64,000 nucleotides of DNA from Escherichia phage OLB35. Under the pieces are notes generated by a model. It searched no databases. It saw only the letters and a list, made by a program, of their open reading frames with translations, and was not told the origin of the DNA. The translations under genes were made by a program, and so were the position numbers. The stretch lies in sequence record MH992122.1; one strand, 5' to 3'. Position 1 is the first letter of the stretch. Each line of letters begins with the position of its first letter. This document shows positions 82 to 62,552 of this stretch, piece by piece.

Positions 82-339
82 AGCTTTACCGCCAGAAATA
101 ATTCCGAAGTTGTTAAAATCGTATCCAATATCGTCAACATCTACTTTAGGATTTACTACAACATAAGCAATTTCACTACGTTTTGCATAGGTGTTGATTT
201 CTTTACCATCGCCACCTAAGAAAGAATACCCATTACGTTTTAATGAGCCAAAGTCTTCGGCATCACCAATTTACTTCGATAGCAGCTTTCTGTTCCGCAG
301 ATAATGTACTTCAGTGATAAACTCTTGATATGTTTTCAT
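82..339 (-). pseudogene. internal-protein-like gene with capsid targeting sequence, interrupted
   Basis: starts MKTYQEFITE; in-frame TAA at 271-273; the downstream segment IGDAEDFGSLKRNGYSFLGGDGKEI...GIISGGKA continues in the same frame; the short segment before the stop reads sensibly in another frame (LSAEQKAAIEVN), suggesting paired indels. Confidence 0.45.
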
Positions 340-2764: not shown

Positions 2765-3450
2765 TACCAGCCTTCCATAGGGAATTCCAGATAAACTTGG
2801 GCATTGACACGAATTTCATTGGTGATCTTTTTAACTCGGTCTGTATTACGAGATACACGTCCGAACCAACGCCATCCATTACTAATTGCACGAGAACCAG
2901 TGTGCCATGTTTGCCAATCGAACTGAAGAAGAGTACGGTCTGGAGCTTCCCATTTCTCTAGTTCGCCTTTTTCAATTTTTTCGAGGACTTCTTTGTGCCA
3001 TTGGCGATAGATAAGTTCGCCATCAGGAATCTGACTGAACTCTGCAGTTCCTGTTGCAAAATGAGTAGGACACACGTCAGCGTTAACAAGACCAAGAATA
3101 TGTTCAGACAAATAGCGAGGATTGTCATAGTCAGGTTGTCCTGCAGTAATAAAATGTTGACCAACCGGAATATCCCGGCGCGGTACATCATCATGGTGAT
3201 AACCTGGAATAGCAGGATACCAACCAGGCATCAGCATATGAACCCGAGAATCAAATACAACATGTTGATTAGTCCAATCAATTGGGAGATTGACAATAAA
3301 GCTACGAGTAATAGGACCGCCGTTATCCTAAGCAAATTTTAAACTACAGTTAAAGAACATAGGCTCGTTCTTGATTTGATCATTAGAAATACCGCCGGCA
3401 AAACCACCTACTGCACGAGCTTGACTATTAAACACTTTAGAACTATTCAT
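2764..3450 (-). pseudogene. hypothetical protein interrupted by in-frame amber codon
   Basis: ATG at 3450 with SD GAGGA; in-frame TAG at 3328-3330 after 40 codons; same frame continues to 2764 (the 157-aa ORF of the track). Confidence 0.4.
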
Positions 3451-5321: not shown

Positions 5322-5595
5322 TTAACAAGTGTGAGAAGATGCAACCCAACCACCATCTTCAAGGCTCAAGTTGTAGTCGTATTGGTAAACGTCGGCCCAT
5401 TCAGCATAACCGTTTTTTTGTACAACGTTCAAGATCGGCTTTAAGATGTCCTGGTGAATGATAGGTTCCACCCATGCCATAAGCTGGATACAAGTTGAAT
5501 GTTGTGTTTTGTTTATTAGCAATTTCTTTGGCAGCCTCAATAGCTGCATAGATTTTTGCTACAGCTTCAGCCAGTTCGGTTTGTTCTTTAGACAT
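5322..5595 (-). pseudogene. paralog P2 with frameshift at a homopolymer
   Basis: N-terminal frame (5401-5595) and C-terminal frame (5322-5549, ending GGWVASSHTC) differ by one nt; the switch maps to a 7-nt homopolymer at plus 5413-5419. Confidence 0.45.
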
Positions 5596-5604
5596 AATGA
5601 TTCC

Positions 5605-5910
5605 TTAGCACAACGCAGAAGACGAAACCCAAGCACCTTCAGTAATAACGTAACCATTACCTTCACGCTTAACATCGCCACCATTATTTTCAATTTCATC
5701 TTTCATCCACTGGGATACGATTTCACCCTTAGGATAATAAGTACGACCGCTACCATAATCACCTACAGAAAATGATACTGCATATTGGTCTGCGATCTTT
5801 GTTGCTTCTTCTTCGATACGTTCAGCTTGATTCAGAAGTTTATAAATTGCATCTGAAGCGGATTTGGCATCATTAAACTCTGGTACTTTAATTTCAATAA
5901 TCTTACTCAT
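5605..5910 (-). CDS. small protein, paralog family member P1 (C-terminal AWVSSSALC)
   Basis: 101 aa; shares MSK start, YGxGxTY and NGY motifs and the C-terminal tail with P2. Confidence 0.55.
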   Translation of the reverse strand: MSKIIEIKVPEFNDAKSASDAIYKLLNQAERIEEEATKIADQYAVSFSVGDYGSGRTYYPKGEIVSQWMKDEIENNGGDVKREGNGYVITEGAWVSSSALC

Positions 5911-5942
5911 TTTCTACATTCCTTAATAAAGTTTTCGATTGT

Positions 5943-6332
5943 TTCATTTTCACGTTTAGCTAGGAGTTCATTATAACTAATCATTTGAGAAGCGTAAACA
6001 GCATAAATTCAGTTAAGGCTTTTGCATCTTATTTCCTTAACGAATTCCATAGCTTCTTCATATTCATACTTTTTAACAGCTTCGATTGTTTCATTTTCAC
6101 GTTTAGCTAGGAGTTCATTATAACTAATCATTTGAGAAGCGTAAACAACGCCGTCAATAAGAAATCCAACTAATCCAAAGGCAAATCCCATGCCAATACT
6201 CATAATAAAAATTAGAATGTTCTCACCAAGAGAAGGCCAGCATAAATTCAGTTAAGGCTTTTGCATCTTATTTCCTTAACGAATTCCATAGCTTCTTCAT
6301 ATTCATACTTTTTAACAGCTTCATCATACTGA
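5943..6332. repeat. nested direct repeats A (about 66 bp) and B (about 83 bp) in order A-B-A-(93 bp)-B
   Basis: A at 5943-6009 and 6090-6156; B at 6009-6091 and 6250-6332, near identical by eye. Confidence 0.8.
6009..6203 (-). CDS. small membrane protein (chimeric: unique N-term + repeat A + repeat B)
   Basis: 64 aa; C-terminal 22 aa identical to the C-terminus of the ORF at 6248-6640. Confidence 0.4.
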   Translation of the reverse strand: MSIGMGFAFGLVGFLIDGVVYASQMISYNELLAKRENETIEAVKKYEYEEAMEFVKEIRCKSLN

Positions 6333-6640
6333 GCTTGGGCTTTTGCGCACTGAACTTTCCATTCTCTTAATCGGGCTCTGTGATGACGTCCTTGGTACCA
6401 ATATCCCATCCAGTTAATAGGCATTAATAAAAACGGTACAATAAGTGGTGCGACGAACATTAATGAAAATGCTGCATCAGACGATATAACTTCACTAGAA
6501 TCTAAAACGGCTCCTATAATCATAAAGATTAAAAATGCTAAAGCTAAAATAGGGCCAAATAGTACTTCATTTGGGATTAATTTACGCTTGTATTCATACG
6601 CCCAGGGCTTACTTGGCATGTATAGGGTTGGCTTTGACAT
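6248..6640 (-). CDS. hypothetical membrane protein
   Basis: about 130 aa from ATG at 6640 (the track start at 6670 is TTG); two hydrophobic segments; C-terminus encoded by repeat B. Confidence 0.45.
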   Translation of the reverse strand: MSKPTLYMPSKPWAYEYKRKLIPNEVLFGPILALAFLIFMIIGAVLDSSEVISSDAAFSLMFVAPLIVPFLLMPINWMGYWYQGRHHRARLREWKVQCAKAQAQYDEAVKKYEYEEAMEFVKEIRCKSLN

Positions 6641-7211
6641 ATTCTCTACATTCCATAATAAATTGCTCAAGGATTAAATTGTTAGTGAAATTAGGACTAA
6701 CAACCATAGTTTCATAAAGCGCATCAATAGCACTTAAAGCATCAACTCTCTTAAGCAAAGGCTTGCCTTCATACATAGTTTCAGAATCGACGATTAACGT
6801 AAAGTAGTATTTTTTATTATCGACTAGAACTTCTGTATCGATATAAAACATATTAGTCCTCAGAAGCTTATCTCTAAAACCATAATAATCTTCAGAGCGT
6901 TCGCTGATATATTCCCATTCAGTGTTTAAACAACAAACAGACCACGTAGGAGCAACGAAATCAGTGAATCTAATATCATGGTCTGCAACTAGTTTAGCAA
7001 TAGCTCCGATATCATGAATCATAATACCTGGGGCTAATAAAGATTTTCTGCTATGGCTAGCCGTTTTCTCGGTGGTCTCATAAGAAGACGACCAGTACCA
7101 TTTACGTCCGGTTGCAACATATCGTAATGAATCAACTAAAGACGTAGGTGGATTTACCTTATCTCGGAACTCTTCGAACATTGAGTCAATATCATTATTT
7201 TGGTTTCGCAT
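6609..7211 (-). CDS. hypothetical protein
   Basis: about 200 aa from ATG at 7211 (MRNQNN) with SD AAGGAG; C-terminal region FIMECR is part of the junction motif. Confidence 0.5.
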   Translation of the reverse strand: MRNQNNDIDSMFEEFRDKVNPPTSLVDSLRYVATGRKWYWSSSYETTEKTASHSRKSLLAPGIMIHDIGAIAKLVADHDIRFTDFVAPTWSVCCLNTEWEYISERSEDYYGFRDKLLRTNMFYIDTEVLVDNKKYYFTLIVDSETMYEGKPLLKRVDALSAIDALYETMVVSPNFTNNLILEQFIMECREYVKANPIHAK

Positions 7212-8161: not shown

Positions 8162-8635
8162 CCTCTGTAGTTGATAAGTCTTAACTATAGTATCACCATC
8201 ATTGGTGTTTGTACATCATTATTTTTAATTTTTCCAACTTAACAACCTTCAGCCAAGATACAACAGAGTTTTTATCTGAGGATTCAAATTCAGGCATTGG
8301 ACTTTCACCGCGAATAACTTCTTCGGTGTATTCATAATCAACGACATCAATACTAACTTTAGCCATTTTGTTTCTCCTCTGTAGTTGATAAGTCCTATAG
8401 TATCACCATCATTGGTGTTTGTACATCATTTATTTTTAATTTTTCCAACTTAACAACTTGTAGTGTCCTTCATTCATACGTGGTTTATCCCAAGAAATAC
8501 TAATATATGATTCGCCATCAATAGCTTTTTCTTCACCACCACCACTGATAGTCCTCTGTAGTTGATAAGTCCTATAGTATCACCATCATTGGTGTTTGTC
8601 AACTATTATTTTTAATTTTTCCAACTTAAAACTTG
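8162..8635. repeat. three tandem copies of a roughly 90-bp promoter/leader module (M) separated by partial gene duplicates
   Basis: module CCTCTGTAGTTGATAAGTC...TATAGTATCACCATCATTGGTGTTTG...TTTTTAATTTTTCCAACTTA at 8162-8255, 8376-8456, 8549-8635; 8300-8375 duplicates the 5' end of the 7925-8152 gene; 8457-8530 duplicates the 3' end of the 8626-8916 gene. Confidence 0.8.
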
Positions 8636-48047: not shown

Positions 48048-48121
48048 TCCCGTATTATTTGGTTTGTGCCATTATATACATCAATCTCAAGTTGTGTTTT
48101 GTATGCTTTAAAAACGAAGAA

Positions 48122-48137
48122 AGGGGCCGAAGCCCCT
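48122..48137 (-). terminator. hairpin AGGGGC-CGAA-GCCCCT downstream of hoc
   Basis: 6-bp GC stem with tetraloop; T-rich on the minus strand. Confidence 0.4.
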
Positions 48138-48142
48138 TACGA

Positions 48143-49273
48143 TTATGGATATGTATAGATGATACCAGTTTCCAAAGCAGTTTTATGGATGATGTATCCA
48201 TTACGTGATTCTTGAACATCAACTTCTGGATAGTCTTTCATCATCTTCTGAAGAGTGTAACGATCCAGGTAGTATTTACTATCTGGATCTTCAGTTTTCC
48301 AATCTTTACCTTCTTCAGTCATTTTTTGGATTTCATCCATAACCCACCAACCGCACCAGATGTAAGCTGAAGTACGATGTGGAAGAGGATGAACATAAGG
48401 TAATTCACCTTCTGGTTCAATTGGAGTCCGTTCAGCAATAACAACTTCAGCGGTTGAACTAATTGTCTTTGAAGTATAATTATCTTTAGTTAATACTGCT
48501 TCAACTTTAATTGTATGAGTACCCGCTGAGGAGGTATCAATACTGTAAGTATCGGTAGAATTACTTTCTGCTACGTTGTCTTTCTTCCAAGTATAAACAA
48601 TAGCAGTACCACTAGGTTGACTGCTTACAGATGCTGTTAAAGTTGTTGCTGTTCAATAATGTTGCCGCCGGAGAAGCCGGAGTAACAGCGATGGTAGAAT
48701 TATTGTCTTCTTATTAACAGTGATAGTTGTTGACGCTTCAGCTATTTCTGGATTTCCTGCGGAAAGTGCCGTAATTTGGGCAACACATTTAATTTTTTTA
48801 ACTCCGCTTGTGGTAGGAGTGTAATTGAATGTAGCAGAAGTTGCTTCGCTCACAGGAGAACCGTCAACGTGCCATTGATACGTAGCAGATGCGCCTGACG
48901 GTTGAGAAGCTAAAGCCGCAGTAAATTTAACAGCTGTTCCGATTACTCCAGCAGCAGGGCTATCAGGAGTTATAGCCAGAGTAGTTGTCTGAGTTTTATT
49001 TTTAACTGTGATAGTTGCAGTAGTTTCTGCTGTTTCAGCTTCAGCTTCTGGAACTGTATTTGTTGCAACTACTTTAATAGTCTTTTGACCGGCAGGTCCT
49101 TTTAGAGTATAATCCATTGTAGCAGCCGTAGAATCCTGCGCTATACCATCCAAAGTCCAGACGTTAGTAATAGTACCATCTGGAGTTTCACCTGCAGGTG
49201 TAGCAGTGAATGTTTGTGAACCTCCAATAACCCCTGTAGGAGTTAAAGGAGATAACGTGACAGTGAACGCCAT
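48143..49273 (-). pseudogene. hoc: hoc (Ig-like outer capsid decoration protein), disrupted
   Basis: N-terminal Ig-like repeats and the C-terminal capsid-binding domain (MDEIQKMTEEGKDWK...) are in one frame, interrupted by TGA at 48653-48655; about 17 codons before the stop read as an Ig-like segment only in another frame, implying a -1/+1 indel pair; total span 1131 nt as I remember T4 hoc. Confidence 0.7.
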
Positions 49274-49282
49274 AAGTTATCC

Positions 49283-49951
49283 TTATTTTAATGTTACGAA
49301 AGAAGAATTACGAGTTTCACGAATTAGAACTGATCCATCGCGATTAATATAATAAATTAAGCTAAATAATGTTTGGTGGGCAGAAGCGTGCACAAAACTA
49401 GTTGGGCGAGATTTCCAATCTGGGGTTTCGGCTATCCATTGATAAATCCACCAAGGAACAGTAACATACCCTGGGCCTTTGCCTAATTTAATGAGTGTAG
49501 GACTAAAATTTTCAGGCAGAACAAATTTTACTTCTTTATTTACCTCTGACTCAGGCTCTTTTTCAGATTCAACAACCTGAGTAATTGCTTCTTCGAATTT
49601 ATCATGGTCGAATTCTTTTTCTTGTTCGACAACTTCTAATACTTCAACTTGGTCTGTTGGAGAATCAAACAACAGAATAGCTTCTTCTTTAACTTCTTCG
49701 TTGGTGAAATTAACACCGTCCACATCATCTGCGGCAGTAATTAAATCGGTGATAGATAATCCATCAGTTTCAGGTAACGGTTCATCAGCCAGTGCGTTAA
49801 GAGCTTCTTCGATATCAATAACAATATTATCGAATGATTTTGTTTTCTTAACACTAATGCCAAATTGTTCCGCATATTCAAACAGTTTAGCTTTGGCTTC
49901 CTTTTTATCAGAAAGAGCACGTAACTCTTCAATATAGTCTTTATCGATCAT
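49283..49951 (-). CDS. inh: inh-like protein (by position)
   Basis: 222 aa acidic protein between hoc and uvsW, as inh is in T4. Confidence 0.45.
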   Translation of the reverse strand: MIDKDYIEELRALSDKKEAKAKLFEYAEQFGISVKKTKSFDNIVIDIEEALNALADEPLPETDGLSITDLITAADDVDGVNFTNEEVKEEAILLFDSPTDQVEVLEVVEQEKEFDHDKFEEAITQVVESEKEPESEVNKEVKFVLPENFSPTLIKLGKGPGYVTVPWWIYQWIAETPDWKSRPTSFVHASAHQTLFSLIYYINRDGSVLIRETRNSSFVTLK

Positions 49952-60465: not shown

Positions 60466-62552
60466 TATCCTTGAACAAATTTAAATGGAACCGATTCCAA
60501 ATCCATTAAAGATGCTAACAGTTTCAATCCTTTAGGAGCACTAGTTTTTTCTACAAATGTGGAGAACGATACCGGCTCATCTGATTCGATTTCACCAGTC
60601 ATAGCAACCACCTCGCCTGTTTCCATGAGAACATCGCCATCGTAAATGACTGCTTCATCCAACTGGTCCGAGGACATGACTTCAGCTTGAATAAATTTAA
60701 GGTTGGATTCTAAACCTGCACCGGTGTCAGATGACGCATCTGTAATTTTATTTATCTGCAAGAGAATGCCTCTAGGCAAAATAATTTCTTGCTCATTAGG
60801 GTGATTACTCAACTGTCCTGGATAAATCACGTTAACTTTATGAGCGCCATCAATAGCCCATCCAACGTTAACACGGATTTGTTCTGGTGCATGCATAGCT
60901 GTTCTTACTTGACTAGGAGAAATAGTAACACCTTCGTCATTATTGTCAATGCTAAGCTCTTTGCGAACTTCTTCAGGAGCAAGTCCAAGGGCAACGTTCT
61001 CTTTAAACCCGCCGAAAATAATAGGAGCTAGTGAAGTAGAAACATAGTTTCTGAAGTAGAATACCTTATTTTTAACCATTGCTTCGTAAATAGGCATTCT
61101 GATAGACTGAGCTCTATACAACGTTAGTCCTTCAGGTAAACGGTCTCCATTTAAAAACGCCGAATCAAGACCATCAATAGCGCGTTTAACTTCATCTTCA
61201 TCTGCAACATCATAAAAATCCGGTTTATAACGTCCTAACAACATATTATTGATATCGGTATACGCAGAAGAGGCATATTCACGAATAGCTCGTTTTTCAG
61301 CAACAGAGTATTGTTTAGGGTCACGATTCATTGTTATATTAAAGGTGCCTCTAGCCGATTCTCGTGCATAAGTATACATCACATTAGACAAGAACGCTGA
61401 TTTACGTTGTTTCCAAGTTTTTTCAGATACTTCAGCTAAAACGTCGTCAGCCAGTTGGAAATTATCTCGTCTAAAATCTTCAAACCATTCGTCTCTAATA
61501 GAGTCTGCAATTTCGTTTGCAGCTTCAACAAAAGCAGCTAATGCTTTAACAGATGTTGTTTTTTCAGTTTTAATTTTCTTAGCAAACTTTTCTAAAGTCG
61601 GCTTAATAACACTACCATAAGAAACTTCATCAGCAAATCTAAAGGATTCATCAATACGATTATAAATCTTATTTTCGATATCAGCAACTAAAGTGCCTTT
61701 TGCTGTAGACGATGCTTGGGCTAGTACGATTTCATATGCTTCAGGAAGTAATTCAGCTGTAGCTGGGCCACTAACTTCTTTAGCAGAATTTTCGTATTTC
61801 TGGAATAGCTCACCTTCTTGGCGGTCAGCTTCTAAAGATTGACTTGCTGCAATAGCGCGACGAGAAATTTTAGTACGAGCAATAACAGGCTTATCTTTAC
61901 GTTTTTCTTCTACAGCAGCAATAGAACCAGCGATAGCCGTTTCTTTGGTGACTTTTTCGCCAGTCTTTTTACTCACATAAACTTCACCAACATCAGAATC
62001 TACTTTCGTGTACAACTCTGTGTTAATGTTAGGGATGCCTTTAATATCTTCAATGTTGGCATTTTTACGAACCATCATCACATATGTGTGTTTACCTGTG
62101 AATTGATACATTGCAGACAATACTTTAAAACGACCACCGGTTTTAGTAGAAACTAAACGAGCAAGAAGAGTTTGAAGTTGTTGTCCACGTCCTTTCAATT
62201 TCTTGGTAGGGAATCGGAACAAAACTGCATCCATACGAAGAGCTTTAACCTGTTCATACACTGTATTGAAAATGGTGTTGATTGCATCAATAGGAGCAGG
62301 ACCAAGACCATTTTTCAATTCAGCGAGATTACCCTTTTCAGAAAGACTCATAATAACGACATGAGCGTATTTGTCACCAAGTTTAACTTGTTTTACAGCA
62401 TCGCCTTCGGAAAGGTAAGAGAATAAACGAACTACGATGTTTGTATCGATATCACCAATTTTCCAGACTTGTGGAACTTTGGCTTTAGGGTTCAAATTGA
62501 CGACAGGAAGACTGCCTTCAGATTCAAACACTTCATTTAATTGTTCAGACAT
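60465..62552 (-). CDS. alt: Alt ADP-ribosyltransferase (virion-packaged)
   Basis: 695 aa (T4 about 682); position between gene 54 and DNA ligase. Confidence 0.75.
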   Translation of the reverse strand: MSEQLNEVFESEGSLPVVNLNPKAKVPQVWKIGDIDTNIVVRLFSYLSEGDAVKQVKLGDKYAHVVIMSLSEKGNLAELKNGLGPAPIDAINTIFNTVYEQVKALRMDAVLFRFPTKKLKGRGQQLQTLLARLVSTKTGGRFKVLSAMYQFTGKHTYVMMVRKNANIEDIKGIPNINTELYTKVDSDVGEVYVSKKTGEKVTKETAIAGSIAAVEEKRKDKPVIARTKISRRAIAASQSLEADRQEGELFQKYENSAKEVSGPATAELLPEAYEIVLAQASSTAKGTLVADIENKIYNRIDESFRFADEVSYGSVIKPTLEKFAKKIKTEKTTSVKALAAFVEAANEIADSIRDEWFEDFRRDNFQLADDVLAEVSEKTWKQRKSAFLSNVMYTYARESARGTFNITMNRDPKQYSVAEKRAIREYASSAYTDINNMLLGRYKPDFYDVADEDEVKRAIDGLDSAFLNGDRLPEGLTLYRAQSIRMPIYEAMVKNKVFYFRNYVSTSLAPIIFGGFKENVALGLAPEEVRKELSIDNNDEGVTISPSQVRTAMHAPEQIRVNVGWAIDGAHKVNVIYPGQLSNHPNEQEIILPRGILLQINKITDASSDTGAGLESNLKFIQAEVMSSDQLDEAVIYDGDVLMETGEVVAMTGEIESDEPVSFSTFVEKTSAPKGLKLLASLMDLESVPFKFVQG

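Follow-up and report, generated by a model that had tools for sequence, protein, structure and literature searches.

Does the interrupted hoc gene of Escherichia phage OLB35 record a genuine loss of function, or does the interruption stem from an error in sequencing or assembly? An earlier note on this DNA had left the choice between real pseudogenisation and a sequence error, and these are indeed the two options that stay alive after the analysis presented here. OLB35 is a Mosigvirus, an RB69-like coliphage with a genome of 169,140 bp, and the stretch of DNA that was analysed (a 64-kb portion of that genome, hereafter the window) shares 97-98% identity with the Mosigviruses CCU7, TH12 and RB69. 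A literature search found no paper on OLB35.

The interrupted gene occupies positions 48143-49273 on the minus strand, 1131 nt including its TAA stop codon. Six-frame translation gives 376 codons in a single frame, with the TGA at 48653-48655 as the sole internal stop, and 17 and 37 stops in the remaining two frames of the same interval; the continuous 1131-nt frame carrying one in-frame TGA, as first described, is therefore confirmed. When the frame is repaired, its translation (residues 1-377) aligns end to end with T4 Hoc (residues 1-376; PDB 5vf3_Z) with E = 2.3e-153, both halves of the gene match PHROG 1149 'Hoc-like head decoration', and the neighbouring genes are inh and 24.3, in an order identical to that of RB69. 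On these three grounds the identity of the gene is secure and, to judge from its sequence, the interval is certainly hoc, in agreement with the original gene call. The Ig-like string of the repaired protein gives a Pfam PKD match above the cut-off together with weaker matches to Ig_2 and Ig_3, and its domains correspond clearly, one by one, to those of RB69 and CCU7 Hoc. Direct reading of the sequence places a Shine-Dalgarno-like AAGGA (49280-49284, minus strand) 6 nt 5' of the hoc ATG, and a terminator scan found an intrinsic terminator, a hairpin (AAGGGGCTTCGGCCCCTT) with a T-rich tail (48121-48138, minus strand), right after the hoc stop codon, as in phage NRG-P0074, where a terminator is annotated at the equivalent place after hoc.

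In GenBank, hoc is already split into two CDSs, of 206 and 65 aa. The N-terminal ORF, which appears in the ORF list at 48653-49273 (minus strand), comprises Ig-like domains 1 and 2 followed by 17 out-of-frame residues. It was deposited as 'large head outer capsid protein' (AYR04099.1), matches PHROG 1149 (E = 1.5e-49) and Pfam PKD, and in an exact look-up constitutes a singleton cluster with OLB35 as its only member. The capsid-binding domain at the C-terminus (48146-48433, minus strand) lies intact 3' of the TGA, keeps the ESRN motif and shows 29-30/30 identity to RB69, UGJNEcP1 and CCU7 in 30-nt windows; it is the equivalent of residues 281-376 of T4 Hoc, the limits and the motif being those described for the T4 protein (PMC10385173). 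The second deposited CDS, a 65-aa ATG ORF of the same list (MDEIQKM...; 48143-48340, minus strand), covers the tail of this domain and bears the name 'capsid and scaffold protein' (AYR04098.1). Its start is the first ATG, GTG or TTG past the TGA, it is devoid of the first third of the capsid-binding domain, and a GGTGG just 3 nt before its ATG is poorly spaced. This ORF matches phrog_21694, a 66-position family of C-terminal hoc fragments.

What breaks the frame is a pair of small lesions. Before the TGA, frame 0 reads TIILPSLLLRLLRRQHY*, and an alternative frame reads DNNSTIAVTPASPAATLL, which matches the start of domain 2 in RB69 Hoc (ENNSTVAVTPASPAAVEIG); the observation that some 17 codons preceding the stop are out of frame, with an Ig-like segment lying in another frame, was accurate. 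Alignment to the hoc genes of RB69, UGJNEcP1 and CCU7 defines lesion 1 at 48706-48712 (minus strand), where a short A run is one nucleotide shorter (AAGAAAGAA is reduced to AAG-AAGAC, the gap falling between 48709 and 48710). An A-to-C change adjoins the missing base, the flanks are identical to UGJNEcP1 at 30/30 positions in 30-nt windows, and at this point the good reading passes from frame 0 to frame 2. It is back in frame 0 just 3' of lesion 2 (48653-48662, minus strand), a 10-nt sequence, ACATTATTGA, with the TGA inside it, which stands in place of 12 nt in both the D2-type and the D4-type repeats. This 12-nt counterpart lies between GCGGCA and ACAGCAACAAC, and its D2 version is GTAGAAATTGGA.

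Every intact relative examined has four residues (VEIG or GVIG) between SPAA and T-A/P at lesion 2, so the two lesions would be most parsimoniously described as −1 and −2, a net −3 nt, with respect to the nearest intact alleles, those of UGJNEcP1 and RB69. The earlier note had seen a −1 followed by a +1 about 60 nt apart. The net restoration of the frame stands, and the sign of the second change is the less likely one, as a +1 would hold only against the spacing of the T4-type domain 3, which is one codon shorter at this place. With 3 nt lost in total, frame 0 returns downstream, and the gene 3' of the TGA retains 170 open codons with 29-30/30 identity to its relatives. The lesions are 48-57 nt apart; under random placement in the 1131 nt, an equally close arrangement has P ~0.10 for two indels and ~0.007 for three. 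The pair had also been termed compensating, a description that fails at the functional level: because the TGA sits within the shifted interval, where it overlaps lesion 2, translation is not rescued, whatever the order of events, and as written it stops at residue 206.

The context of these lesions is an allele of mixed ancestry. In a sliding 30-nt window comparison with eight hoc alleles, OLB35 hoc is RB69-identical from nt 1 to ~100, RB69-like with C-type patches from ~100 to 165, and identical to CCU7 and Mizar from 171 to 495, the domain-1 head passing from RB69-type to CCU7-type via a patchy mosaic. It then follows the RB69/UGJNEcP1 domain-1 tail and domain-2 head from ~500 to 611, lacks a good match to any allele from 612 to ~688, and corresponds to the RB69/UGJNEcP1 domain-4 tail and C-terminal domain from ~688 to 1131. 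A three-way alignment of the poorly matching tract resolves it as a fine-scale D2/D4 mosaic of about 75 nt (48585-48662, minus strand), which makes the third Ig domain a hybrid and marks the place where 570 nt (two domains) of RB69-type hoc are deleted. In the 90 nt that begin at hoc nt 622, 41 sites are informative; 18 of them are D2-type, 23 are D4-type and none is private, with about nine D2/D4 switches within ~65 nt and pure D4-type sequence thereafter; over the tract, the D2 and D4 repeats share ~54% identity (49/90 positions). Lesion 2 lies at the 5' edge of this mosaic and lesion 1 lies 47 nt upstream. The position of lesion 2 at the edge of a hybrid tract, in an allele that is itself recombinant, speaks for a single complex event, or for a single problem of local assembly, and against two independent point indels.

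The parental alleles are well recognizable. RB69 and UGJNEcP1 Hoc have 471 aa and four Ig domains, CCU7 Hoc has 567 aa and five, and OLB35 hoc is 29-30/30 identical to these source alleles over most of its length in 30-nt windows. OLB35 differs from them in that its pieces stand in an order found nowhere else, in the segment missing between the D2 head and the D4 tail, and in a finely mosaic join with 3 nt missing in it and just upstream. No other record contains either of the paralogous junctions, neither the one from the C-type D2 tail to the R-type D1 tail nor the D2/D4 join. When a 241-nt region was compared with 50,697 phage records, the best match reached 85%. A search of 5.8 billion proteins for an intact protein of the OLB35 architecture gave a best full-length identity of 73% among the matches listed, and the junction motifs were absent among the 120 protein matches listed. 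Exact and gapped DNA patterns over the lesions and the hybrid tract returned 0 matches in viral, metagenome and genome contigs; the sole control (RB69-type, in viral_contigs) was also 0, which makes the zeros from the viral contigs uninformative. OLB35 hoc is a recombinant allele, apparently found nowhere else. Since the Hoc lengths found in the protein database, 376, 472 and 568 aa, are whole-domain steps (96 aa), the gain or loss of entire domains is the normal mode of Hoc length variation, and the OLB35 junction would be of the same kind, but out of frame. The repaired OLB35 protein belongs to the same length class as T4 Hoc (377 vs 376 aa; PDB 5vf3, 8t1x), with which it shares three Ig-like domains, a C-terminal capsid-binding domain with ESRN and the neighbours inh and 24.3. 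Unlike that of T4, the OLB35 ORF is broken after domain 2, leaving the Ig and capsid-binding domains unlinked as written.

Our preferred reading, which we hold with belief and doubt in equal measure, is that the OLB35 hoc of the deposited record is a true loss-of-function allele, and we infer that the lesions are present in the phage DNA and arose together with the hybrid junction. The lineage would have acquired a private recombinant hoc in which an RB69-type domain-1 head was joined to a CCU7/Mizar-type domain-1 tail and domain 2, followed by an RB69-type domain-1 tail and domain-2 head. A homeologous join of domain-2-type and domain-4-type Ig repeats might have removed the 570 nt, and with them two domains, in an imprecise manner, costing 2 nt at the hybrid tract's 5' edge and a further 1 nt ~50 nt upstream. 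Ribosomes that initiate at the ATG of hoc would synthesize two Ig domains and 17 wrong-frame residues before meeting the TGA, and the 206-aa product, devoid of the capsid-binding domain, would not attach to gp23 hexamers. The T4 capsid carries 155 copies of Hoc. As written, no single polypeptide joins the Ig domains to the capsid-binding domain, and OLB35 virions would be expected to carry no Hoc at all. The phage would still be viable, since Hoc is dispensable in culture, as had already been remarked for this locus and in agreement with published work in which T4 survives without Hoc and the protein is not essential under laboratory conditions (PMC10385173, PMC10580926).

The principal alternative, to which we assign somewhat less than an even chance, is that the break is an assembly or sequencing artefact and that the true OLB35 hoc is intact. 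The gene could have the same three-Ig architecture with 3 more nucleotides, encoding 377 aa, or it could be a longer gene of four to five Ig domains from which the segment between the D2 tail and the D4 head was lost. In the latter case, two contig ends or two read populations would have been fused at the Ig repeats, both the mosaic and the gaps then arising from a column-by-column consensus. Several features tell for such an error and against a real lesion. The 206-aa ORF, the hybrid allele and its two paralogous junctions are confined to this single record, and the patchy shift from RB69-type to CCU7-type in the D1 head counts in the same direction. The three missing bases fall within 57 nt, sum to exactly 3 (the case with P ~0.007 for three random indels) and affect short runs (AAA to AA; a G of GG), and hoc shows no decay elsewhere, which resembles a local consensus error. 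The combination of no private substitutions with some nine switches in ~65 nt is likewise what would be expected from a consensus of two sequences. Furthermore, a second private gene-breaking change in the window, a TAG in the homologue of RB69ORF132c, also falls exactly at an allele junction and is a two-allele hybrid within one codon.

Other observations favour a lesion carried by the phage itself. Every informative base of the mosaic is of one parental type or the other, Hoc lengths differ by whole domains, the protein is dispensable, and broken hoc genes recur in a fragment named after T2, in phages a20 and NRG-P0074 and in a PHROG fragment family. D2 and D4 are far too dissimilar for assembler overlap, graph assemblers should be unable to jump at shared words of <10 nt, and switches every few bases at such identity would be impossible in a k-mer graph assembly unless they were present in the reads. 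The mosaic does not reach lesion 1, whose surroundings are otherwise identical to UGJNEcP1, and it switches less often than if each site were set by an independent coin flip (9 switches observed vs ~13.5 expected), its runs being somewhat longer. The large structural and replication genes of the window are all full length relative to RB69, so the OLB35 sequence is generally accurate, and a window-wide list of indels against CCU7 and RB69 contains no frameshift in essential genes (~50 kb). These intact genes argue against random errors, but not against a consensus artefact specific to the junction, and they are not decisive; the argument is weak because a mixed consensus does damage only where alleles differ strongly, that is, in accessory genes.

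Two further genes of the window are interrupted or frameshifted. The RB69ORF132c homologue (2767-3450, minus strand) has its TAG at codon 41 (3328-3330), where CCU7 has TGG and JS09 has TAT, so that the stop is a hybrid of both inside the codon, at the allele junction; the stop leaves a singleton fragment of 40 aa (AYR04040.1). In the RB69ORF137c homologue, an A7 run at about 5407-5413, which is A6 in CCU7 and RB69, shifts the frame and leaves ORFs at 5401-5595 and 5322-5549 (minus strand). It is the only other clean homopolymer frameshift in the window. The frameshifted product has 64 aa and ends in TKKRLC, and because the identical out-of-frame tail is shared by at least four independent Logan assemblies, the A7 call at ~5413 is probably real, a point that counts for a real lesion in hoc as well. 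A third form of 75 aa occurs in mar005P1, and this homopolymer seems to be naturally length-polymorphic.

We consider it very unlikely that the lesions are real and the gene is nevertheless partly expressed by decoding of the UGA by tRNA-Trp. Readthrough would yield a full-length Hoc with ~17 scrambled residues in strand A of domain 3 and the capsid-binding domain attached, and the upstream −1 would represent a selected intragenic suppressor of the junction frameshift. The net loss of 3 nt, the identity of the stop (UGA with A as the next base) and the absence of any other stop in frame 0 are compatible with this proposal, and a UGA readthrough of ~2-4%, measured in E. coli K-12 BW25113 reporters (PMC10570021), also counts for partial expression. 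However, a few per cent of a product with a disrupted Ig strand would be a poor candidate for selection, and a total of 3n is expected by chance in ~1 in 3 cases. Moreover, UGA readthrough in K-12 is unusually high relative to wild strains, which counts against partial expression. The narrower version, in which the upstream 1-nt deletion is the selected suppressor of an out-of-frame fusion and the leaky UGA allows partial decoration of the capsid by a small amount of full-length Hoc, strikes us as slightly less credible still; it would make OLB35 a case in nature of a decoration protein saved by a leaky stop codon. The classical +/− pairs of intragenic frameshift suppression in T4 rII are nearby indels summing to a multiple of three, like those of OLB35; unlike them, the OLB35 pair encloses an interval that ends in a stop, and suppression fails unless the UGA is read through.

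Programmed recoding, in the form of a −1 frameshift at lesion 1 and a +1 at lesion 2 or of a gene-60-style bypass of ~50 nt, has next to no probability and was rejected, the only point in its favour being a stretch of ~50 nt between in-frame coding parts of a T-even phage gene that resembles the 50-nt coding gap crossed by translational bypass in T4 gene 60: direct reading of 48640-48720 (minus strand) revealed no slippery heptamer (X XXY YYZ) in AAT AAG AAG ACA, no matched take-off and landing codons such as the GGA codons of gene 60 and no take-off stop after lesion 1, in another frame the stretch codes for a conserved Ig strand, which is translated in the ordinary way by intact relatives, and the OLB35 arrangement is present in no other genome.

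Deposited T-even genomes often contain a broken hoc, and OLB35 is one more case. A 141-aa fragment is named as the Hoc of phage T2, and PHROG 21694 gathers 66-aa C-terminal fragments. Phages NRG-P0074 and a20 are both annotated with a split hoc: the A8 run of RB69-type hoc (GTKKIKV; hoc nt about 190-197) is A9 in NRG-P0074 and A7 in a20, and in a20 an A5 run has become A6 at nt about 589, 394 nt downstream of the A7. As in OLB35, the −1/+1 pair of a20 restores the frame and leaves stops in between. The breaks of a20 and NRG-P0074 affect long A runs (A8, A5) in ordinary alleles, whereas those of OLB35 lie at a repeat-hybrid junction and in short runs.

Rearranged or alternative sequences were observed elsewhere in the window. 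The e.3/e.4 region (5907-6670, minus strand) contains internal duplications, with MISYNELLAKRENETIE present in each of two small neighbouring ORFs and AVKKYEYEEAMEFVKEIRCKSLN as the shared C-terminus of a 64-aa ORF (6009-6203) and e.4 (6248-6670), and the extra segment is absent from CCU7. Between 8150 and 8650, duplicated gene pieces (the N-terminus of frd.3 at 8298-8366 and the C-terminus of ORF146c at 8439-8525) are interspersed with copies of a repeated TGATAAGTCCTATAGTA-like motif, which suggests a segmental duplication in a hyperplastic region. In alt (60468-62552, minus strand), RB69 differs from both OLB35 and CCU7 by a +1/−1 pair at 60969 and 61138, 169 nt apart, so that about 56 codons of RB69 are read in a different frame; this could be either a frameshift and its compensation or an old error in the sequencing of RB69. 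The RB69ORF125c homologue (82-339, minus strand) has an N-terminal patch that diverges from CCU7, contains a stop and has no ATG. As this patch is ~97% identical to phage ECO26.1 3-1, it would be an alternative natural allele and not damage specific to OLB35. Apparently scrambled patches at 271-301 and 3388-3398 were likewise considered as damage and rejected, being ordinary alternative alleles ~97% identical to other phages.

The break in OLB35 hoc is in itself an ordinary finding, either the disruption of a gene that the phage can do without or a local error of assembly, and under either outcome the understanding of Hoc or of T-even genomes is unchanged. An artefact would call for correction of the GenBank record, whose two hoc CDSs feed into families of fragments such as phrog_21694. 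A real lesion would make OLB35 a natural or laboratory-derived Hoc-less RB69-like phage, a circumstance relevant to its use in mucus-adherence, immunogenicity or display work, and the unequal recombination between Ig repeats that changes the number of domains in Hoc would have yielded here a failed, out-of-frame product.
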